Of a DNA stretch of 64,000 bases, positions 1,072 through 17,574 are shown in pieces; position 1 is the first letter of the stretch; every line of letters starts with the position of its first letter. The DNA comes from Paramecium tetraurelia. Lineage: Eukaryota. Both the position numbers and the translations under genes were made by a program. The notes below the pieces were generated by a model. It saw nothing but the letters and a program-made list of their open reading frames with translations. It searched no databases and was not told where the DNA came from. The stretch lies in contig CT868096.1 in NCBI GenBank assembly GCA_000165425.1, positions 1 through 64,000 on the forward strand, given 5' to 3'.

Positions 1072-4000
1072 TCAATCCATAAAGTTGAAAACAATGAATA
1101 TTTTGTGTACACTCCATAGTTTAATCCGATAGTACCTTATAGCAGGAGAGAAATTGACTGAAGTAACTGTTGATGAATGACCATTTAATTTGGCTTTTTA
1201 TTATCCTGTCTTAACATCCCATAAACGAATAGAGTTATCTCCACTACCAGATGCTAATGTAGTACCATCAGGAGAGAAATGGACTGATAGAATTCCATTT
1301 TCATGACCATCTAATTTGGCTATTTATTATCCTGTCTTAACATCCCATAAACGGATAGAGTTATCTTCACTACCAGATGCTAATGTAGTACCATCAGGAG
1401 AGAAATTGACTGAAGTAACTGTTGATGAATGACCATCTAATTTGGCTTTTTATTATCCGGTCCTAACATCCCAAAAACGGATAGAAAAATCCCGACTACC
1501 AGATGCTAATGTAGTACCATCAGGAGAGAAATGGACTGAATAAACAAAATGCGAATGACCATCTAATTTGGCTTTTTATTATCCTGTCTTAACATCCCAT
1601 AAACGTATAGAGTTATCTTAACTACCAGATGCTAATGTAGTACCATCAGGAGAGAAATTGACTGAATAAACTGCATCAGAATGACCATCTAATTTGGCGA
1701 ATTATTATCCGGTCTTAACATCCCATAAACGAATAGAGGAATCTGAACTAACAGATACCAACGTAGTACCATCAGGAGAGAACTTGACTGAAGAAACTGC
1801 ATCATCATGACCATCTAATTTGGCTTTTTATTATCCGGTCTTAACATCCCATAAACGGATTGACTTATCCAAACTACAAGACGCTAACATATTACCATCA
1901 GGAGAAAAATTGACTGTGTTAACATATCTTGAATGACCATCTAATGAATATATATCATTAATCTTTATTCTCTTCCATTTGCACCCAAACATTTAAGCTC
2001 TATTTAGATTAATTGCATTTATGTTCACATCAGTCAATTCAGATTAGTTTAAATTACTTTGAAAAAAATTTCCTCCAACTATGGAAGTATTTTTGATTCT
2101 TATTTTCTCAAAATTGTGATTAGTTAGATCAATTTACATCTCAACTAATAAATTCAGTGAGTTAGATCCTCCCTATATAAAACTACTTTCAATGGCCGTC
2201 AATTGAACCAGAAATTTCAAAAACTCAATTATTGATACTTCATTTTTTATTTTTTAGATTAAATACTTTCTAGATTCTACATATGTTTCAATAGAATAAT
2301 TATCTAAAAAAAATTCATGTTTATTCAATGTTTTCAAAAGACTTAGCGTTGATTCAATATTTTTTTTAAAAGCATTTACTTTCAAATCTCTAATTAAAAC
2401 ATGAAACTTAATTATTTTCTCTTAATTTATTAAATGTGGTGAATATTCTAACCAATTCTTATCATAATTGTTCTCTTTTGATAGCTATTCTAATATCCAA
2501 TTGAATGTCTGCTTATTAAGTTCTTTAGATACCACTAATACAGAATATAAATCAGCCGCTATATAAAACTCTTGAATTGACTTATGGACAAATTAAAAGT
2601 TATTACCTTTTTATTTGATTAGAGAGCAACTTCTTAAATCCTTCTTATAAGAACCAAATTAATGATCATCATCATTAAAAAATTCATTTTACCACTTTTC
2701 ATCTTCTCTTTCTTCTTAATACAAAAATCCTTATTATTAATATTAAACCTATGTCGTTTATTTTGCACTCATTACTTTCGCAAGATTGATTGAATACTTT
2801 TTTAAGTCATGTAAGAACCTATCAATATGTAATGATTTTCCCAAGTTTCTCTACTTTTCGATTTATTGATGATGATATTAATTAATAAATTCATCGTAAA
2901 AGTCAAAACTTGTAAGATTGAGTTCAGATAATGCATTGCGAACAACTTCGATCATTCTATCTTTCAGAATGCTAATTTTTTAAAATGAATTGTTGAAGTG
3001 TTTAAGGGAGTGTTCGAAAAAGAGATTTTTGTTAAGATTTAATTCTTGAAAGTGGATAGCGATTGAACTTTCTTCCATTTTATTCCAGACCTCAACAGCA
3101 ATTTCAAAGTAATTAATTTTATCCAAGTTTTCCACATCGGTTTAGGTAACCTGTTATTCTTTTTCATTATTATCCTGTTTTTCTTTTTTCATTATTATTC
3201 TGTTATTCTTTTTCATTATTATCCTATTATCCTATTTCATTAATTTATTCTATTTCATTATTATTCTATGCTCTATACTTTTTCTTTTGCCTATTATACT
3301 TTTGAATCAAATAGTTACTTTTGTAAAACTCATAAAGCATAATTGGGAAGTTTTTTAGAAAATTTAATCTCAAATTGATTATCTCTGAGGCCTTCTCCAT
3401 CATTTTAGGCAACACTTAAACTATTATTTCCATCATATAGGGAGTTTCTATCAATCTATATAAATTTATTTGATTCATCATCTTTTCATACTTTTCAACA
3501 CTCCATAGTTTTTATAATTTTACCATTAGATTTCTTAAAGCTTCAACACTTTTTAAATTAAAGAATTAATTAATCTTCAAAAATGATAAAATATTATCTA
3601 TTTCTTTTTAATTCAAAAGAGCTTCACTATTAGCCTTTGTTGCCTCCAAACTCAAACACTATTCAAACAATTTTTCCCAATTAACTTCAAAATTATTGAT
3701 ATCCTACTCTCCTCGGTTTGAAATTTAAGATTACCATTCATATAATTCGTAAATCAACATTTTAATACTTTAAATTGCAAACTTTTTTAAATATTATTTT
3801 ATTTTTTTTAGATTAAATTTTTCAAGCTGAACTTCCTTTAAATTTTCTTTTTTTTCAGGTGCAAACCATAAGGCATAATTAACGCTTGTAAAAATTTCAC
3901 TTCTTGTAGTAAAAATAACAAGTGGGTCTGACCAATTCTATTTGACTTTATTATTCATATATAAATTTTTCTAAATATTCTCTAGTTTCATTTCATCATA

Positions 4001-7000
4001 GCTATCCATTATCAATAACAATCTAAATTCATTTTTCTCTAACATCTCTTTGCATTCTTTTAATTAAAGATCGTCAAAACCGTACTCATCTTGATGAAGT
4101 GTTTCCTCTACTGCTTAAAATACAGGGTTTTTTAAAGAGGGTAAGGAAATATAAATGGGGATGAGAATTCGATTTCTTATTTTTTTATTATTGTTATGTA
4201 ATTTCCAAATAAATTCTTCTATTTTCTTAGCTGTCGTACTTTTACCAGATCCAGCTACTCCATGAATTAATAACACTGTTTCTTTCTCTTCTAATAAAAA
4301 CTCATTCACTTCTCCTTTTGTATCATTAATTTACTCCAAATTTATCAAGATACTCTCCTCTTTCTTTTCGTCTACTATTGCTTTATGATAAATCTCCTTG
4401 GTTTCTAATGGTACGTAAATGGATTTTGTATTCTTAAGTGCAGCTTCTTTCAACACCTTCCATTTTCTAATTTCAAATAATTATTCAACAGATTTTCCTC
4501 TCAAGAATTTAATATCGTTACCTATGTTTTTGAGTTATTCCTTCATTTCATTGATTTTCCCCTCCACTCTAATCAAGCCTTTTCTGATATGATTAACAAA
4601 ATCGGTTAGCAGTCTCAATTATTAACCCATTTCACTAATATTTTTAATGTATTAATCTAATTGCTCTGTTGTTTCATCAAGTTCTTTAAGGCACAGATCT
4701 CGTTTGTTGAGATTAGCCTCATGAGAAATTTATTCTTACAATTCATCAATTCTGCTCAACATTTCCTACATTTCCCCTGCAATTCTATCTTATTAAGTCT
4801 ACCAATCTTTCGATAAAATCTGCATTTACATACTTATCAATTTTTCATTTTTCAAAAGGTTTCTAACTCTTAGATCTTTTTCTTGAACCCATAATTCAAT
4901 TAACTCTTTTTAACAAAATTGAGTAATTTTTTCTGCAAAGCTATGCAATGAAATCTAAATTATTGTTAAAACTAATCCCTATTTAATTTTCCATTCATCA
5001 TTATTGTATTAATCTTTAGAGAATTGATCTTACTGATTGGTTTTAACTTCTTATTCCTCATAATTTTCTTATAGGTATAATATTTTACTTAATTAAATTA
5101 GGTACTCTTGATCAAACTAAATTTCTATGAATTTCCACTTAGACTTCATTAGCTTTTCTTTTGTTTCAGCCATTAACTAATAGAGAAAATGAACAATATT
5201 TATTATTTAAGTATTCTTTTAATCTGATTAATTTTCATCATACAAGTTGATCGAAATTCTTGAAAAGTATTCTTTACTTGATTCTGTTTCATATTATTTT
5301 AAATTCGCAGTTGTGAATTGATATTCCTTCAATTGGTTTAACTGGTTTTAAAAACAACTTAAAAAACCTATATACATCTCCTCATAACATTCTTATAGAA
5401 CATCACGACTTTTAGTAAAATTTTTAACATTTTCAAAGAATTATGCTAACTTTTGCCTGGTTTATCTAGCTTTAATTTACAATAATTATAGAATGTTAAT
5501 AATGATTGATAAATTTTTTCTATTTTGGTTATTAGATTCGTCCTTATCTTCTTCCTTGATCTTATCATATTTTGTTTTTAATTCATTAAATTTTACTTTT
5601 AAATCATTTATTCTTTTTATGATTGGCATTCTAAAAATTTCCAGTTCTTAGTTAATGGAAGCTTTCAATAATTTAACAACATTTTCAACCAGTAATTGTA
5701 TTTATTCTCCTTCCTTGCAATTTTCTTAGTAGTTAATTTTTCTTAATTATTATAGTAATATCTCATACTTTTATCTCTCAATTTTCAATTAATCTTGATT
5801 GAGATTTTTATTTTCAATAATGTTTATTGATTAGTCTATAGAAAAATTTCTTATAAGTGTCATAGTTAAAGAATTAGTTTCTTCAAATAATTCTCCAAAC
5901 TCCTTTTCAATTAATTCTAAATGTATTCTTTCCAAATCAATCATTTTTTCTTCTAAAGTTAATTAAAATATAAGAAGATCTAAACTTCCTTTTAATATTA
6001 TTAAATTATTTTAATAGTCTTGTTATGTAATTTCTAACTTCATTAAATCAGCAATAGCCTATTGGTATATTTAACTGTCACAGCAGATTATTTGTTTTGG
6101 ATAACTCTAAATTACATTAAGAGGAAACCCATCTAAATTGATTTCACCTAGATACTTTAAAAATTCTTATGATGGAATTGAGAATATATTTTAAAAACAT
6201 TCTTTGAAAGTGATTAATTGCGATCTAAGTTTTAAAATATTCAGTCTTTGTTAGTGTAGAAATTAAAATGAAACTTACTAAGAATATTTTTTTTAAATTT
6301 CTTTCAATTATTCAGGTGAAGAAACAGTGTCTATTTCATACTGTAAAATTAGAAATGTCTACAACCTTAAATTTAATTCGTTAAATTAATTTTGAAGTTC
6401 TTAGATCTGGTGTTCATAATAAGAATTAAGGTTATTCAATAAACATTAAAAGTATTAAATTAAGCTCTTCTTTTGAAGTAACAAAATTTCTAGCTCAGAG
6501 ACTTATTTTACAGTTTATTCAATTAGTTTTAGCATGCATTAAGCTTCTTTCAAAAAACTTCTCAAGTTAGGAGTTGCACTAATTAAGGCAATTAGCTTCT
6601 ACTAAAACTTATTTAAGAAAGAAAAATTTTCTTCTGTTAGATTTAGATTTTATAATTACTTCTAAATCTCTTCTAACTATTATTACATCACTTTACTTTC
6701 ATTAGGTTCATTTTTCTTACTATTAAGATCTTAAATTGCTTATGATAATATTTATTCTAATAGTCTCAAAATGTATTTAATCTATTAAAAAATTTAAAAT
6801 TCATTATTTTTTTTCTAATCAAATTATTCTAATTAAAAGTTTTATTTCCTCTTACTTAGCCTAATAATTTTAATGATTTTTAGGGCGTTTTGGAAAAATT
6901 CTTTGAAGTTGAGATTTATTTTTTTTAATTATGAATTATGCTTGGCTTATTCTATTTTGGCATCAAAATACATATTTTATTTGATAAAATTTAAAAAATC

Positions 7001-8359
7001 TTTAACTATGATCCCCAATCTCTCATAATTTTCCTGAATCAAAGCTAGCAATTTATTGGAAATGATGAAATCAAGAAATTGTTAAATTTTGCAGATTGTC
7101 TTTTATTCATCTTTTTAGGGTTCTATACTTCCTAATTTTAATTTTAAATAAGAACCAAATGTGAAATAGATATTATCAGTTTTTTAATTCACTAAGAAGT
7201 CTTTAAGCAACATGAGGTTTTCCCATTCTATGAAAGTGTCCTCTAGTATTAATTTATCAATTTAAGATAGTTCTTTATTTTTAAATTAATTTAGTAAAAC
7301 CAAAGCTTAGTCATTGCTATGATTCAATTACATTAGAAACCCTTTGTTCTGATATTCCTTCCACATGAAATTTGATTTGGCTTAAAAATTGAAGGGGCTA
7401 GTAAGCTGGTTTAATTTTTTTTTTGTTATTAGAGGATGATAAGTTATGATTTTTCCAATCATTTAAATCCACAAAAAATGATTTTTCCAATTACTTTAAT
7501 TTTTCACAAGATTTTCGTGTATTTTATTCATATGTAATAGTATTTCTTCCAAATTCTAGCTGTCATTTTTCAAATTATTTATGATCTCCCATTACAAAAT
7601 ATCTATTTAAAAATAACTTTCATATTATTTTCTATTTTTCTAGACTGTATAATCATCATAAAGCAGAACGGCTCCCTTATACAATGATTTAAACAAATCA
7701 ACACTAGGTTTCATATCAAATATTGAGTTAATGATACCTTCTAAACAACCATGTAAAATATCTTCCCTTTCTTTACCATTATTTGGGGCCATCTGAAAAG
7801 AAGTTTAAGTTAGAGAAAGGTAAAGTTCCAATTATATTTGAATTAAATCATTTTTCTCTATTGACATTTCTTATCTTAATTGATCACAAATATCCAAAAT
7901 TTGATTCTAAGTATCCCAATTTATGAACCTTTACGCTTTTCTCATATGGAAACTAAATATCACTTTAGATAGAGATGCGGATATCCTTAAGATAAATAAA
8001 CTTTTAAATGAATCCGTTCTGATGTAGATTAAACAACTTTTCAATAATTTTTAAATTCCATCTATAATTAAGTTGTATGATTTCATGACCTTTTCTTCAT
8101 TTTTGATGAGTTTGTAAATGTTTTCCTCTTAAAAAATAAACCATTATATGGCTATCATTATTTCTTAGGCTTCTGATTAGTTAGCAGCAACAGTTGCTTT
8201 ACTAGAAATAATTTAGACAATAGAATCAAATCTAGTAATGAAAATATCTGTATCATAAATATCGGACTTTAAGTCTACATCTGTGTAGGGAATTGTTTTA
8301 GTAGATCCACAACCACCTCCACGTAATGTGGATGTTACTTTATCCAATAGGCCTGACAT
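1072..8359 (-). CDS. NACHT (STAND NTPase) + pentapeptide + WD40-repeat protein, NLR-like NWD family, ~2430 aa; one +1 frameshift or cryptic intron near 3190
   Basis: ATG 8359 [21 protein letters not shown]; Walker [10 protein letters not shown] (~4240-4262); Walker [29 protein letters not shown] winged-helix motif; GSNSLNLL plus pentapeptide-like [25 protein letters not shown] repeats; TGA 1072-1074. No intron needed in the stretches I translated except at the frameshift. Confidence 0.9.
1141..1945 (-). repeat. Tandem 126-bp (42-aa) WD40 repeats, 6 complete plus 1 truncated
   Basis: GH codons recur every 126 bp (~1934, 1808, 1682, 1556, 1430, 1304, 1178); consensus [42 protein letters not shown] with very high DNA identity. 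Confidence 0.95.
3151..3270 (-). repeat. Coding minisatellite, ~24-bp unit (QDNNEKEQ), inside the NWD gene
   Basis: Repeated units cag gat aat aat gaa aaa gaa taa on the minus strand, with degenerate copies upstream. Confidence 0.8.
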
Positions 8360-9299
8360 TATTAATAACAATTTAAAATTATAAATCAACGTCAGTATAA
8401 AAATGATTACAACCTAATTTTTTATTATAAAATAATTTTTTCTTTTGAATAATAAAAATTTTCTTTTTATTACAGATATATAATCAAATCTCATATTTTT
8501 ATGTATAGATATTATTTTATAAAGTTCTCCTTTATTTTAGCCCTTCACATTTGTGATTCAATTATTTGAATTTTAAATGCCACTATCAAATTCCAAATGT
8601 AAGAATAGTCAGTCCATTTTATCTTTCTACGAGAGATAGGTAAAACGAAAATCATTTATTATTCTCACTATGATTATCTGAGTTTATTCACCATAGTTTT
8701 TATCAATGAATCATTAATACTAAATCAGTTTAATCTTTCAATTTTTTTATAATAGAGTATGAAATCTTTAAGATAGAGGATTTTTGCTATAGTATGCTTT
8801 ATACCTAATTTTAAAGCATTAGTTTAAACATTTAAATAAAATTACAACTGAGGATTAGATCTTCTTATAATTAACAACTTAATTAATTATACTTTGAATT
8901 TGTATTAAATTATAACTCTTTCTAGACTTATTTTATTCATTAACTCCCTTATTTGAATCATTGAAGATTAATTATGACTTTAAGAAACAAAATGAAGAAA
9001 TTGAACAAGATTTTATCAGCATTGAATGCGTAAAAAGGGTACTTAATATTAATTCAAAGCTTTCATTTTTGATTGCCAAGCAAACAGAATCGATTTAATC
9101 TACAGATTGCCTTATAATTAATAGAAGGAGAAATCTCAAAATATCCTTTATAATTAAAAGTCAAAAGCCAATAACGATAATTATAAAAATTTTTCAAACA
9201 AAATTATAACTCGAAGCTACAATGATAATGTATTCTTAGGTGGTTAATGAGCTGCTTAAAATAACCTTACAATAAAAATAATATTCGAATCAAGTAAGA

Positions 9300-11700
9300 A
9301 ATCAGCAGTTAAACAATTTAGATTGCTACATTTGAATAATATCAATAAAAAGGATTGTCTAAATAATAATTATCATAGCTTTGAGCTTCATCATATTATA
9401 CATTAGCATATAAGATTATCAAGTATTTTATCTTCGAATTTTTAGAGATATTTTTTGACATTTGCCAATTTTTAACCTAATTTAGTTTATATTGAAACAA
9501 TTTATAAATATAAATCTTATCTATTTCCGCCAAATCAATAGAGTTCAAAGAACCTTATAAAGCAGTTTATGATTTGGAGAATTTCTCTTACTACGTTTCT
9601 CAATTTTATATTTTTTATATAAAACCATAGATTTTGCTTTTAATCACTAATATATGATTCATTTCATTTTATCCTAAATTAAGTTATTAACAGAATTCAG
9701 CTGTTTTTCTTTGACTTATCAATCATTCGACAAAGTAAAACCTAACCCAATATTCTCATATTTTTCAAGATCTTTTACCAATTAAAATTGAAATAAATTT
9801 AACTATCTCTCAATATTTTTAGCGGTATTTATAATATAGAGGATAATCTGGCTATTTGGATTAACTAAGTAGTGAACAATCAAATTTATAATCTCATTCT
9901 TTTGGAGCAATATTAATTTAAATATTAGTTAAATAGCAGTTAGTATATCTGAAATATTTCAAATACATAAATCATAGCGTATTCTCAAAATTGTATGATT
10001 AAAAAGTAAAAAAAGCATTTTAGGTAAAATTAATTAAGTTAAAATTGCTAAAAAGAACTTAAGAGATATATGGGTTTGTTCTAAGTGAAGGTTTCATATA
10101 AATCTTAATTGTTAATGAAACAAAATGCCTCAGTTAGTTCTCTTAAATAAAAGGAATTATCACAAAAAAAAGATAAAAAATTCTTTAAATTTCATATATT
10201 AAATAATTTTTCTAATTTTTCTAAACGAGAAATACAGCGTTAGTGCAAATATTCAGTTGGGCAAGATATATTCAAACATAATTACTTAAATATCCAAGTT
10301 TTTTCTTCATACAATGCAATAATTCATCCAATTAAAGCGAGATTTAGTTAACTATTATGATTGGAATAACAGTAGATAAAGTAGATGTGAATTAGGCACA
10401 GAAAACAGTTGAGAAATTTGCCCACTTATTTATATTTTCTTTGAGCAATATTCTCATCAATGAAGTATTGTTTCTAAGAGTTCATGGGTCTCATCCTTTA
10501 TTATATTATTACAAAAACAAACATTTTCAATAGCAAAAAGACCAAAATATATTTTATTTGTATAGCAAACAACAACTTTAAAACTAATCTTGAATTAATA
10601 TTCAAAAATTGTTATAAGCCTATTCAATCTCTAGAACTAATGTAAAGAACGTTTCCTTTTTCTTTTGAGAAACAGATATCTATAATATAAATGGCTAGAT
10701 AGGTTGAATGCGACAAGAAATATCTTCTTAAAAGGAATAGTTATTTAGATAATTATCTTTCCATTTTATTACTAGTTGATAAATCATATTTGCCTTTTGG
10801 ACCTATCTAAAGCCTTAAATGTTTCCTATTGCCACTATTTTTATTTGATATCTAATTTTACTAATTGATTGAAGAACTGAAAGAAGAATTAGGATTAAAC
10901 TAGAAAATAGTAGAATTTGAAAGAATTAAAGATAAACCAATTTTAATCATTTTTGAAAGTCACTAAAGTCTTTGCAATTGCTGATGATCTTGCAGTTACC
11001 ATCTTAATAATAGAGCAGGATTAGTAACAAAGTAATTTCTGGACCAGGCAGAAAGTAAAGTTTCAGAGTAAATCTTAACAACCTAATTATATGTAAAGTA
11101 AAATCTAGATCATGATTCCCTAAATAAATTTGGATGCTTTAGGCTATTTTATATCACCTAGAGTCAACATAACGAACACAGAGAAAAAATTAAACTAATG
11201 AAAACTTCTTATGTGATTAATTAACAAATTTAAGTCGCTTACTCCCACCAAATTGTATTAAACTTCATTTTCACTCATTTGATGAAGAATTTTGACATTA
11301 AAGTAATTAAATGAGATTGCTGTATAGAAGTCGATTAAAAACATCATACACTGGGAAGAGTATTATTGATGAGTTGTGAATTTGGCCTGTAGCCAACAGC
11401 TTGATGAAACAGACTAAGAATTTATGGCAAACTCCTAATATATAAGGAAAATTATTCTAAAGCTAACTAGATTAAAGAATATCGATAATGCAGTGGAAGA
11501 GATCAGAATTTTCTGCTTCAGTAACAAGATAAAGAGGAAGATATCGGAATAATTTGATTAATTGGCCCACCAAACTTCTCTAATCAAATAAAATGAAGTA
11601 AAAAGATTGTTGAAAAATGTAACAATATTGTTCTTAGTCGGCTGTTTATTGAACATGTCCTTCGACATGATCCTGCGCTCTACTAAGATTACTTGACCAT
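9300..11700 (+). mobile_element. Degenerate non-LTR retrotransposon (LINE) ORF2 remnant: APE endonuclease + reverse transcriptase
   Basis: Ordered RT-like motifs: LIFKNCYKPI (~10595, cf. DFxxAxDSI), GPIQS...PLFLFDIQFYQLIEEL (~10799, cf. GxPQG..SPxLFNI), KVFAIADDLAV (~10965-10997, cf. Y/FADD), KVKFQSKSQ, DALGYFI (~11133, cf. YLG). Upstream APE-like traces, some needing a 1-nt indel: IAT(L)N ~9322, YxPP ~9522, FGEF ~9573, TIDFAF ~9624, LS(D)H ~9716. Many stops and frameshifts. Confidence 0.6.
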
Positions 11701-11749
11701 AGAAAGCTACATAATGAATATTCACGGTTTTAAAGACTACTCTTATAAA

Positions 11750-12850
11750 AAAGAGTTGTGCTTCCATTTAAAAACCTTAATGGGCATTTCAACAAAATTG
11801 TTGAATAAATGGATTTTATTCGTAGTGATTGAGGTCCTTTCAGACTAAGAAATAACTTGGTATATTATTGAAAACTTATTACAAGTAGGGAGCTATTTCA
11901 CACAGGCCTGTCGAAATTTTAGATTAGAATTTTTTGTTTCATAATTTTTTATAAGAAGAATTTCAAATATCATATGTGCTGGTAGGGAGCCGTCATAAAT
12001 AGTCAAAGATTTAAGCATCATATTGATCTCTCAAATAATTTGAGGATGTACAAAATCGGCAGAGGCTTATATCCGAATCATTAAGGGGAAATAGCTAATT
12101 TGCAAGTAAATTAGTAATTGAATTATCAACAATTTCCGATTTTGCAAATTGAATAAGTGTTTTTTGAATTCAAAAATCTTACAGGCACAAGTTCATCATT
12201 TGTAAAATTTAAAGTCCAACATGGTGGAAATTTGAATTTTAATAAGGTAACTGTGCTTTTGCTTATTAAATGTAAGCGTGGATGTTAGATGTTATTGTTA
12301 TTTCGGGAATATAAATAGAAGCTTGGCTATATTTAATGCAAACAAGACAAATGATATATACGTGAACAAGTTATTATGACAGAACCGACAACATATCAGT
12401 TGCGACGAACTTGAAGTGCAAGCATCAGCATTTATGTAGGTAGTATTAGACGTTTAACAGTTACATATTTAAACCTGGGAAAATTAGGGATGATCCAAGA
12501 AACATAATATAGGGACACTCATTTATGAAGAGTCTCATTCAATTTAAACATCAGTATATATTGCAAAGAGCAGTTCTATTAAATATAACACAAACAAGGA
12601 CTATAAAATCATAAGTTGATTTTACACAAATTGTTTGCCATATATATTTTGATCCAATTCATAATCAGGCTCACTTTCTTTGCGAATTATGGGCTTGATA
12701 CTGCTCGTCCTAAATTCAATAATGAGGAATGTGCCTACACTTAAGCTCAAAAAATATTGACTTCTACTGTTAATTAGGTGTAAGAAAAGTTAACGCATGA
12801 GGAGAGAAATAACTAGTATCATTAAAATAAGATGGTAGTAATTTTAATCA
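11750..12850 (+). pseudogene. Decayed ORF downstream of the RT remnant (extra ORF of the element or an unrelated relic)
   Basis: Protein-like segments (MYKIGRGLYPNHQGEIANLQVN, KFKVQHGGNLNF, FKPGKIRDDPRNII, YGLDTARPKFNNEECAY) separated by TGAs and frameshifts. Confidence 0.3.
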
Positions 12851-13969
12851 TGACTCAAAGAAGAAGGTGTGGCTTCAAGTCAAGCTGATTCACAAAATGG
12901 ATCGGTATTTATCTTATCCAAAGCTATCAGAATTGATTACAAGCTTATCAATTCATTAGTAATAGGAGGCATAATTAATTCTTTTTAGCTTCCAATTAGC
13001 TTGTGCTTCTAACAAATTTAACATTTGATCTCCCACTTTACCTAATACATAAAGACTCAGAGATATAATAATCAATTTGGATTGTGCAAGATTGTCACTC
13101 TGGCATTAAAAAATTATAATACTGATAAGTGCAAATTTATCTTGATAGCATTCTTAAATTTTGTAATATTTTCTGGTTTTGGAAGTTGTGGTGGGGTGTT
13201 TGGAGGATTGTCCTAGTGTCGGGTTATAATGAGATTTGCGGTGGTCAAAGACGGGTGTGCCGTGTTGTTGGCAAGAAAAATAAGTTTCAGATAATTGTTC
13301 ACCTCATGAGCAATTCAGGGTCTTTACATATCATCCATCTGAACTTATAAAAGATTGACACGCTTAAAAAAAACCAATTAATTTCGGCTTATGCTAAAAA
13401 AATACATAAAAATCCTATTACAGAGGTTTGACGATGAATAAGCCTAGTTGATTTGCGATATAGTTGGCACTTTGATAACATAAGTTATAAGTATAAGGAT
13501 ATTTTATATAACTATGAGGTCATCATCAAAATATTAGCAATATTAAAAAGATGGAGAGAGTATTACAAATAGACATTGTAAAGATGTTTCTATACAAGTG
13601 GCAGTTGTTAATCTAAAAGTCATATCTATAAGAAAATCTAAACACTAATAATGATGTCTAACATTAATTAGTGTTCTTCAGTGTAAGTTAGAAAAAGTAG
13701 TTTAGATGACTAAAATGATCAAGAAGTCTTACATAAAGAACAAAAGATTTTACGAGGTATTTTATTCAAAATTTTTTTTAAATTTGCTGGTGGAATACAA
13801 TTTAGCCTGATAAAGCGCATTTAGGACTTGATAATAATGCAAAAGCCTACACTAATTAGAATTAATTATTTTTAATATTAACACATAATACTATCAAATC
13901 ATAAATGTTCAATTTTAGAAATATATTTTCCTAACCTCTTTTTATTTATTTTTTCATATATAAATTAGT

Positions 13970-15610
13970 GTTTCAGACCAAGAGATTTTTTGAATGGGAA
14001 TTTACAAAAAGTTGGAAGAATAAGGTAAACTGATTCTCGTTACAGATTAGGAGATATAATTTGCCTAAAGTTGTGAAATTATTAGAAAGACTATCAATAT
14101 TGATTTAATTTCATTTGAAAGACATGGAAACCTACCACCATTTTGAAACTGACCTTATAGATCTTTTCTAGATTCTTGAAGTTGTTTTAATACATTTAAA
14201 AAAGAATCTCGCAAGTATATGGGGAATAATATAAGTTTACCAAAGAAGAAACTTGTAATATTCAAGAAAAACATTTCGTATCCATTTAAACTTCATTATG
14301 ATTTAATTTAAAGTAATTTTTAGATTATGAATACGCAATTTAATTTTTCATCTGAAACTGATCAATAAGCCTAGGTATTTGTATTCCTTTACAGAAATAA
14401 TTGAATTTTAGATATCAAATAAGGTTTGTTATTCTTTTTTAATCTCCAAACTCCTTCATATATGGTCATATTTCCTCTAAATGTAGGAGGCGCTGTTGTC
14501 TGCTTAAGCAAGATACTTCTCATAAAATTCGTTCAGAAAATAATGAACCACTATTCTTTAAATTGTAAGAACATTTTATGTTTGAGCTTTAATATAACAA
14601 TCTTGTAAAGGGAGTAGACACGATTTACAAGTTCTTGAGATAAAAATTAAAAAGAGTTGAGTCCAAGATGGACTTAAATAGTCGTGCTGTTAAGTAATCT
14701 GCCTTTTCACTTTGTTTCTGAATGTTAAAGCTAAACATCATATAAATGATATCATAGCTTGATAAACGGCTATTTAATGTATTGGTGACAAGACACAAAA
14801 CGAATTATAGGAAGCAGCCATGATTAAAGCATGAGTGGTTACACATAAAGTTGTTTCAACTAAAGCTTTCAACTCGTGCGTTCATCACAAAATGTCATTA
14901 ATACTCCTGGCTCTAGTTATTATTTTCGGTGCTTAAATTTGCCAATTTGTTGTTCTAATTCAAGTTTTGCTCCATTTTGGGATAATAATTGTAGAAAACT
15001 ACCTTTAGAAATGAATTAACTAGAAGTATAGGTATCAGTATTCCAGGATATTTAATATGCAGTTAGACTTATTGAAAACTATATATTTACAGCATCTCAT
15101 GAGATTTTAAAAACTATATAATTAGAATAAAAAGCATGATTCAGCTACAAAATATTTTAAAGTTTAGCACAAGCTGGTGAAAATTAAATAGATTTAGGAG
15201 GTAATGCACTTATATAAAAGTAGAATTAATGTAAACAGCAAACTCATCATGAATTGTACAAAAAGTAATCGAAATTTTCATTGCTGTTTTACAACATGCG
15301 ATAAGGAAGTAAGCTCAAATTAATACAGATTCTTCATTCAAAAAATTCTCAAACTTTAGATGTTTCTATAAAATTAAATTCTAATCTGGTTAAATGAACC
15401 AATTAATGAGGCTGCTTTAACTTGGTGTCTAATCCATATTTTGGAAGCAACATTTCACTTCATTTTATAAATTTAAGTAGCCCTTTACTTTATTATGCAG
15501 TTCTGCTCAACAACAAGGTATATGCTGAAGCATAAAAGTGGTTATTATTTGATATATAAACAGCTTAATACAGAAACTAGTATTTTCCTCTCTATTTAAT
15601 TTTATTGCAT
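13970..15610 (+). pseudogene. Decayed gene relic, family unknown
   Basis: Coding-like segments (NVINTPGSSYYFRCLNLPICCSNSSFAPFWDNNCRKLPLE; CFNLVSNPYFGSNISLHF) with multiple in-frame TGAs. Confidence 0.3.
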
Positions 15611-15619
15611 GAAATTATT

Positions 15620-17574
15620 TTTATATTACAAGATTTTTGAATAGATATTTGTGTACATTTCCGGAAGCCCCTTTAGACTGATTCAAGAATAATGGTCCAA
15701 TATCAGGCTTTCATAATAATTACATAAATGGCAAATGCAGAAGTGTATATAAATCTGCTTGTAACTGGAGTAGGCGAATAAAAAAGTATTGTTATTTGAG
15801 AAATTATGTAAATGCTGCCCTTTTTATTGGTAACACTCTTAGAAGTTTGTGAATACAAGTAGCACTAGAAGATTGTATGCATATTATGTAAAAGCACATA
15901 ATGTTTTCATATATGCATCATCAAATGAAGCAGTTTTGTTGTTACGCTCATCTCCCTCACAAGTTGTGGTGATAATTATTAGCTAAAGAATATATGAAAA
16001 ATAGCGAATACTATGTAGAAAGCTCTTCAACATGGTATTGTATTGCATACATGATATGCAGACATCTCCTTTCAAGACAGTTCCAAGTATTACTGTTGCC
16101 ACAAAGTCTCTATCATAAAATCATCTGGAGAGATATTAGAGCTTTAACCACAATTTGAAATGCTCTCATATGCAGATTTTATATTTTATTGGTTAAACAA
16201 CTGTTTTAAGGTGGCTGGTTAGCAGAAACTCAACTGCCAAGCTCAACTTATACTATCGAGATTAAATCGGCACTACAATACCAACCTGTGTGCTAGTGTC
16301 TTAAGTTTTTTTGTGAGAATCATTACCTGGCCAAGTTTTGAAAGAGAAAATACAATCATTTTGAAGCTAGCAGAGTTTTACTCTAAAATTATATTGAGAA
16401 ATTACTAAATATGAATTCTCTACCTAACATCTTGTCGCAGTTGGTAAATATTAAAGGACAAACTCAAAGTCCATATAATTTTCTTATAATAAGCTAAAGG
16501 ATACGATACTATGTGAAGGAAGGAGCTGATGGTTCCTAACAAATTTAGTTCTCATTTACTGCAGATATCTCTGAAAAATGTTTGCACACTATCCCCAACA
16601 TTGTACAAAAGTAACAAGGGCTAAGTTATGGTCTTGCACATTACATCGAACTAAATTTTTTCCACATATGTATCAACAGTTTGAGACATAGACATTATGT
16701 TGATTGAGAATGTAGCCATCAAACAACTGATAGTATTTCTGGTACTCTCTTGCAAGGTTGAATTCAACTAACCAAGCTGTGAGATGCAAGGATTAAGCAT
16801 TAGATATAATGCCCCTAATTAAGAATGAATAAGGCGAAGGTGTTCTGCAGCAATTCAGTAGTAAAAATTATTGACATCAGTTACAAATTTACAATAGCAT
16901 TAATAAGGATTCTCGTTAAAGCATTTTTTTCGCTCCTAATTACACCATTATCTTACCCATATTCTGATTTTCAAACTGCACAGAGTATTTATAAATACTG
17001 AAGTTATCAACTAGATATGTTCTACATGAATATTTGGTTCTACATGGTTGTTGTTCACAGGTCTGTTAGAAAGAAATTTTGAATATTGATCAGGATTTCT
17101 ATAAATAGCTACAAAGAAAGGATGGCTATATTTTGAGATTCAGTTACATTGATAGGAGACAAATAGTCTATTCTAAGTGCTTTGCTGACAACTTAAAATT
17201 CAAGAAGTTAGAAAAACTAACACTTCATCTGTTAGAAGTCTAAGATATAAAATATTTGATGTACGGAAATGGATTTTTGACAGAAGATTTTAACAAGCCT
17301 TATAAGCACTTGAATAAGATTATGACATCATGAAATCTTGAATGTGGTATAAGTAATAAAACATTTCGTTAATTGAGTAGCATCAACAACCAAGGAGCAC
17401 AGAAGTGAAAGTTGAACTAATCACAACCATCACAAAGGGAGGAGTGTATATTAAGTAGGAGATCTAGTTACTTCATATGTCAACATATTTATGAGAGATC
17501 GTGATCGTAGTAAATGTAAATCATAGCACATTTAGGATTGCCAGAAAAAATAGCAAGAGCTTTTTAATTTCCAT
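15620..17574 (-). pseudogene. Decayed secreted Cys-rich (surface-protein-like) gene
   Basis: ATG 17574 gives signal-peptide-like MEIKKLLLFFLAILNVL then TGA; downstream frames show scattered Cys/Trp-rich segments (WCNQERKKCFNENPYQCYC, PCYFCTMLGIVC, TWNCLERRC) with many stops. Confidence 0.4.

Follow-up and report, generated by a model that had tools for sequence, protein, structure and literature searches.

How much of a retrotransposon survives near the left end of a 950,118-nt Paramecium tetraurelia scaffold, and why its remains lie in DNA of somatic type, are the questions raised by this locus. The window analysed here, the first 64,000 nt of that scaffold, belongs to an assembly of 72.09 Mb in 697 contigs, and its long ORFs are open under code 6. 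The P. tetraurelia MAC assembly is given as 72 Mb in PMC5405496, and we infer from its size and code that the present assembly would be of this somatic (MAC) kind. The original prediction described a LINE fossil in such somatic-type DNA, a reading that proved correct and can be narrowed to Group 5. Its title, "APE + RT", is another matter, as the homology that can be demonstrated starts at RT motif 4 and the APE is not supported. The relic is real, non-functional and smaller than had been claimed, and it is classed as Group 5-derived and not as an intact APE + RT element. It is probably a dead, 5′-truncated copy of a Paramecium Group 5 non-LTR retrotransposon, with RT48784 as the nearest consensus.

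The strings discussed below are named by the standard schemes for RT motif numbering and for APE motifs. The features of the locus are the following:

8950–10790, no strand: AT-rich flank upstream of the relic, GC content 0.24, in which neither APE nor RT homology could be demonstrated
10793–10823, plus strand, frame 3: possible RT motif 3 remnant DLSKAL, by eye, 17/22 nt against RT48784; overlaps GPIQ out of frame
10814–11878, plus strand: decayed, 5′-truncated LINE copy assigned to Group 5, from RT motif 4 to the 3′ UTR (RT48784 anchors, Group 5-only words, relic alignments)
10814–10902, plus strand: RT motif 4 block, with QG changed to KC, LFDI, LIEEL and an exact ERRIRIKL; 66/90 nt identical to RT48784 by hand count
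10950–10991, plus strand: RT motif 5, YADD appearing as IADD, Asp-Asp at 10983–10988; by eye against the consensus
11062–11165, plus strand: RT motifs 6 and 7, split by frameshifts, LGY being motif 7; by eye
11332–12112, minus strand: RNA-like contig antisense to the LINE, from run X17 (RNA status guessed), depth 5.9
11618–11668, plus strand: decayed zinc finger CX2CX7HX3H with 3/4 ligands left; finger type from the available part of Table S3 of PMC5405496, position from the alignment with a relic on contig C66
11846–11878, plus strand: 3′ UTR remnant, TTTAA tail lost; alignments with the copies on C66, C147 and C413 end at 11878–11879

All the strings on which the predicted RT motifs 3 to 7 were based are present on the plus strand under code 6 (FKNCY at 10601, GPIQ at 10799, LFDI at 10841, LIEEL at 10865, AIADDL at 10974, KSQ at 11070 and LGY at 11139, with KCNNIV of the presumed finger at 11615). 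Comparison by eye with the Group 5 consensus retains LFDI/LIEEL, AIADDL and LGY as homologous, whereas FKNCY, GPIQ and KSQ had been misnamed. LFDI and LIEEL form the end of the motif 4 block, and AIADDL is YADD with the Tyr changed to Ile and both Asp retained. FKNCY, on the other hand, has 0 matches in the available consensus ORFs and sits outside the demonstrable homology, on its upstream side. GPIQ precedes the consensus QG site, which reads KC at 10817–10822, by about 4 codons, and its single match in the available consensus file is to an unrelated solo ORF1, while KSQ results when the DNA of motif 6 is read out of frame (VNL at 11068, in another frame). A single frameshift had been placed between motifs 4 and 5; the 14 anchors show at least 6 frame changes, of which two fall between these motifs, and about 15 are seen when all peptides recognisable by eye are counted. 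The decayed Cys/His knuckle suspected near 11615 turned out to be homologous, with Cys 11618, His 11654 and His 11666 kept and the second Cys lost. Were DLSKAL a remnant of motif 3, a still unproven internal deletion of ~166 nt would precede motif 4; this reading is without statistical support in the relic alignments.

The assignment to Group 5 draws on exact word matches to, and comparison by eye with, the TE consensus ORFs in the supplement of PMC5405496. Three window peptides, ERRIRIKL, FLCDQL and MQWKRS (8, 6 and 6 aa), are matched exactly, in order and only by Group 5 among these consensus ORFs, with 5, 5 and 2 matches in the available file, respectively, those of MQWKRS being confined to RT48784 and RT3903. 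Diagnostic residues read by eye (LIEEL, KCN, KDYS and ELCFH) point to RT48784. The chance expectation for an exact 8-mer is 0.002 in 3 kb, three frames and one 1003-aa ORF, and 0.095 in the whole window. The 14 anchors, from residue 620 to residue 973 of RT48784, follow by eye one diagonal drifting from 8984 to 8837 (147 nt), which is descriptive and not a test, since the anchors were hand-picked and the consensus was compared by eye. In total, the relic spans consensus residues ~611–1003 plus UTR (code 6), about 1.07 kb of a 3.08-kb consensus, no homology being demonstrable upstream of RT motif 4.

The copy is heavily decayed, with roughly 70–75% identity, many small deletions (~147 nt net) and no capacity to encode an RT. 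The longest open stretch is 77–108 codons per plus-strand frame, there are 7–12 TGA stops per frame, and an open ORF of ~1003 aa over ~3.08 kb is absent from the plus frames of the relic. The frameshifts are not assembly errors, because runs X5 and X7 each carry 8,120–13,916 as one 5797-nt contig with 0 differences and no branch inside.

Statistical evidence for the 3′ part comes from other Group 5-like relics of the same assembly. That on C66 is a young 3′ fragment, 85/91 aa being identical by eye to the available consensus RT283. Against 11,603–11,878 it reaches a DNA score of 137 (shuffles 58.3±5.2, maximum 72.5 of 30) and a frameshift-aware protein score of 167 (38.6±6.0, maximum 57 of 86 real 1-kb tiles). 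The copies on C147 and C413 give alignments of 87.5 versus 38.0±3.5 and 145.5 versus 44.6±5.2, respectively. A longer relic on C220 extends the support to 11085–11339 (72 versus shuffles at 39.7±6.4, maximum 63 of 100) and scores 95–114 in tiles at 11501–12000 against a background maximum of 71 of 1240 tiles; its whole-length score is less clear (134 versus a maximum of 124).

The prediction was to fall in the absence of a colinear match to non-LTR RT profiles, and here the evidence divides: the single-frame fragments of the relic miss RVT_1 in Pfam scans, so that the RT core rests on the by-eye consensus comparison, whereas the 3′ part scores far above chance against other relics. In positive controls from other loci, RVT_1 was found in 3/3 RT pieces, and Exo_endo_phos weakly in 1/2 APE pieces. 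A search of the whole assembly with RVT_1 matched three other loci and missed the window. No relatives scored in word-based searches of protein databases, the one match of a HMMER protein scan (E 8e-5) is an unrelated repetitive protein, other RT relics found no RT match in the window stretch by tblastn, and RT relics of other groups showed no significant alignment with the window. Searches for further RT-core copies in the assembly returned only the window.

Several of these relics deserve mention in their own right. LINE relics with Pfam RVT_1 matches occur on C74, C15 and C270, the one on C15 keeping an APE piece as well and the one on C270 being Group 4-like by eye. Group 5 3′ ends of ~0.3 kb lie at C66:209.5–209.9 kb, C413:17.0–17.5 kb and C147:28–295. 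The C66 and C413 copies begin at telomere repeats plus a gap, and the C147 copy at the scaffold start; all three look as if chromosome breakage had taken their 5′ part.

The APE traces that had been described ~1 kb upstream could not be recovered by motif search, Pfam scans or relic alignments, all of limited power on decayed DNA. The APE motifs SWN, xQE, GD and SDH/DH are absent from all plus frames of 8,900–10,600, where only 3 loose D-x-N strings occur, and 5 ORFs of the same stretch gave no Exo_endo_phos match in Pfam scans. An APE relic of the same assembly scored 73 in frameshift-aware alignment, against a background of 58.7±11.8 (maximum 112 of 86 tiles). The APE relic and the RT1–4 relics were within background in 8/8 queries against the window, as were the C220 tiles over 8.6–10.9 kb; these negative tests have low power for the 5′ part because the C220 relic is also at background over 10,801–11,200. 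In addition, GC content steps at about 10.8 kb from 0.24 upstream to 0.29 inside the relic, and 10664–10791 is common to a C40 segment beside a NACHT paralog that carries no LINE 3′ half beyond. The 5′ end of the relic is put at 10,793–10,814.

A near full-length copy with APE and RT, whose 5′ two thirds have decayed beyond the reach of the tests or derive from an older LINE, is rather unlikely. The diagonal would place its start near 8,950–9,200, which the geometry permits, and weak look-alikes are found by eye in YKPI at 10613 (motif 1-like), QIG at 10696 (motif 2-like) and DLSKAL at 10800 (motif 3-like), with offsets of 9173, 9157 and 9150 that lie near one diagonal, and in QEIY at 10060. 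However, the remaining look-alikes are spread over different diagonals, an RNA-like contig, spliced and in sense orientation, covers 8864–9293, and within one copy 73% conservation would not be expected next to a part that is beyond recognition. The missing APE motifs, the background scores of the APE and RT1–4 relics, the GC contrast and the C40 segment weigh in the same direction.

At the 3′ end, the homology of the 5′-truncated copy stops at the start of the tail in the younger copies. A target-site duplication was not found, two 7-nt direct repeats between the flanks being no more than the estimated chance. A second decayed repeat adjoins this end (window 11,860–13,700 and 17,070–17,440) and has counterparts of 67–77% identity on the small contig C328 and, close to their starts, on C691 and C51; it has no Pfam match, and an RNA-like contig lies over it at 12,156–13,672. 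Insertion of the LINE into this right-hand repeat, with a matching left flank, was rejected, as nothing rose above shuffles in 4/4 tests. A Helitron origin of the repeat, considered for a likeness of motifs, was likewise abandoned, with no Pfam match and no word match in the available TE file.

The relic lies 11 kb from the scaffold end. Its outer neighbour is a NACHT-WD40 gene on the minus strand, whose start is near 8,359, and a Ras-family gene follows on the inner side at about 19.3 kb. The description of its surroundings as gene-dense fails locally, since ORFs of ≥200 aa cover 0.41–0.44 across 12–20 kb versus 0.75–0.96 across 20–40 kb, which places it in a gene-poor patch. RNA-like contigs at 14,352–15,092 and 15,171–17,543 lie over gene-poor DNA, with no Pfam match in the scanned ORFs. 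The large NACHT plus WD40 gene, at window ~1,080–8,359 (minus) and thus at the scaffold end, has paralogs of 79–88% identity near the ends of contigs C40 and C424; the 5′ region of the C40 paralog contains an interruption by telomere-like repeats (C40:258,612–258,697).

As for its retention, 16/24 listed runs carry ≥0.98 of the words of 8.8–13 kb, and 10 rows from 6 studies still do once the 6 flagged as a possible source are taken out; no RNA run is on record among them. The contig that holds the relic has a depth of 45.4 versus 47.4 (X5) and 99.9 versus 99.7 (X7) for the next 17,140-nt contig, which is gene-rich and, judged by its length, runs inward to about position 31 kb; the ratios are 0.96 and 1.00, in runs that bear no MAC/MIC label, X7 being possibly the source of the window and depth being flat per contig and hence coarse. 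Full retention is favoured over partial retention because the two contigs are equal in depth. Run X16 is without the 8.2–13.9 kb piece, and there is an RNA gap at 9.3–11.3 kb; both come from filtered records and carry no evidential weight. The 17,140-nt contig is unbroken in 3/3 DNA-like runs, and the statement that the relic contains no IES is withdrawn, because these runs show no IESs even in gene-rich DNA. A joint from 8,847 to 13,646, skipping 4,798 nt that include the relic, is present in X16 and X7 and not in X5; it is probably a paralog match, its short side being only 23 nt. Short-sided joints (20–34 nt) in run contigs were set aside as such matches.

The suggestion of a relic partly retained at a heterogeneous chromosome end agrees with its position near the scaffold end and not with its contig depth. 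By definition, MAC-variable regions are scaffold extremities with low coverage (PMC8354472); they lie near the ends and add up to 9.2 Mb (PMC13085455). Residence in such a region, with retention in a fraction of somatic chromosomes, would suit a gene-poor patch that lies 11 kb inside a 950,118-nt scaffold, the published definition and extent, and the position of further Group 5 3′ ends next to telomere repeats or at the beginning of a scaffold. It is nonetheless improbable, given the contig-level depth ratios from unlabelled runs, the lack of any telomere-repeat run in the whole window, the unbranched 5797-nt contig and the intact-looking NACHT-WD40 gene farther out.

Full retention of the decayed Group 5 copy could be accommodated by the scanning model, in which 25-nt scnRNAs matching the maternal MAC are removed and the remainder direct elimination (PMC7374600, available text). 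The sequence of events would begin with the homology of ~10,814–11,878 to the 3′ third of Group 5, for which target-primed reverse transcription that stopped early, or a later loss of the 5′ part, may account on the grounds of non-LTR biology. Decay to roughly its present identity, with loss of RT coding capacity, would have followed, and the relic now appears unchanged, at inward-gene depth, in the runs of somatic-size DNA. A relic once kept would be kept again, because scnRNAs matching the maternal MAC are subtracted from the 25-nt pool, provided that younger, eliminated copies supply no matching scnRNAs, from which the relic may be too diverged. Its longest exact stretches shared with 4/4 other Group 5 relics are 12–19 nt, and with RT48784 18 nt by eye; the former, a comparison among somatic relics, would be consistent with escape from 25-nt scnRNAs. 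The idea that the relic is "too decayed to be eliminated" may thus fit better when restated as too diverged for the small RNAs of younger copies.

The locus also carries signs of transcription. In the X17 contig, a 27-nt GT..AG gap at 11856–11882 (minus) spans the LINE 3′ end, and the 27 nt are present in X5 and X7, which indicates, from one contig in one run, a spliced transcript antisense to the LINE 3′ half. Read-through from the decayed repeat next to the LINE is the most likely source of this antisense RNA, and the relic has no protein function. Upstream, an RNA-like contig at 8,864–9,293, without a Pfam-supported ORF, has a 21-nt plus-strand GT..AG gap at 9,039–9,059 and lies head to head with the NACHT gene. 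It is very unlikely that the antisense transcript, with its tiny intron over the old tail junction, serves as a maternal RNA that marks the relic as self and so secures its somatic retention; if it did, a retrotransposon would be seen at a single locus crossing from germline-limited to constitutively somatic, with co-option starting.

Very unlikely, too, is co-option of the relic, by which it would form part of a short gene or of a functional antisense RNA and be kept by selection. The 11332–12112 contig, with a minus-strand gap missing from two DNA-type runs, would speak for it, as would minus-strand frames open from ATG (234 and 90 aa) and four RNA-guess runs from two studies that carry 0.31–0.44 of the words of 8.8–13 kb, X17 being the one aligned to the window. 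However, the contig is single, from a single run at low depth and of guessed RNA status; the two minus-strand frames gave no Pfam match, long open frames being common under code 6; and indels are dense and the sense frame shows no constraint. Moreover, tiny introns are expected in Paramecium non-coding RNA anyway.

Finally, a chance origin of the motifs, as strings that AT-rich DNA yields under a permissive code, is practically impossible in spite of three misidentified motifs and the lack of Pfam or protein-database support, being refuted over 11,085–11,878 by alignment scores far above shuffles and real-sequence controls, and over 10,814–11,085 by the exact 8-mer, one of the ordered words restricted to Group 5 in the available consensus file, and the common diagonal.

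Somatic location is not in itself surprising, because LINE copies in the MAC-destined compartment have been published (0.62 Mb, 0.84%), and it was through a cluster kept in the MAC genome that RT was first discovered (PMC5405496). In the available text of PMC6586856, 1985 LINE copies are counted and TE copies are described as mainly highly degenerate. No paper on the window copy itself was found, and per-copy annotations may well include it. The relic is thus of little weight alone, both the family and somatic LINE relics having been published already. Its value is rather as a test locus, beside the C66 and C413 ends cut at telomere repeats, for asking whether a copy so diverged that no 25-mers are shared can be predicted to escape elimination.

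Compared with the available Group 5 consensus (RT48784, then RT3903), the relic is colinear from RT motif 4 to the 3′ UTR, keeps the long spacer that separates motifs 4 and 5 in Group 5 and has a finger remnant with 3/4 ligands at the CX2CX7HX3H position of the group (PMC5405496, Table S3). It differs in having no detectable APE or RT1–2, an eroded QG, a changed Tyr in YADD, one Cys and the tail lost, at least 6 frameshifts and a somatic location. The Group 5-like relics on C66, C147, C220 and C413 share its assembly and its decay, and a position near a scaffold end is shared by those on C66 and C147. Unlike the C66, C413 and C147 copies, which retain only ~0.3 kb of 3′ end and adjoin telomere repeats, a gap or the beginning of a scaffold, the window copy is longer and has no telomere repeat beside it. 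From the published LINE copies of MAC-destined DNA, likewise degenerate and somatic, it shows no difference in kind, as far as the available text describes them.
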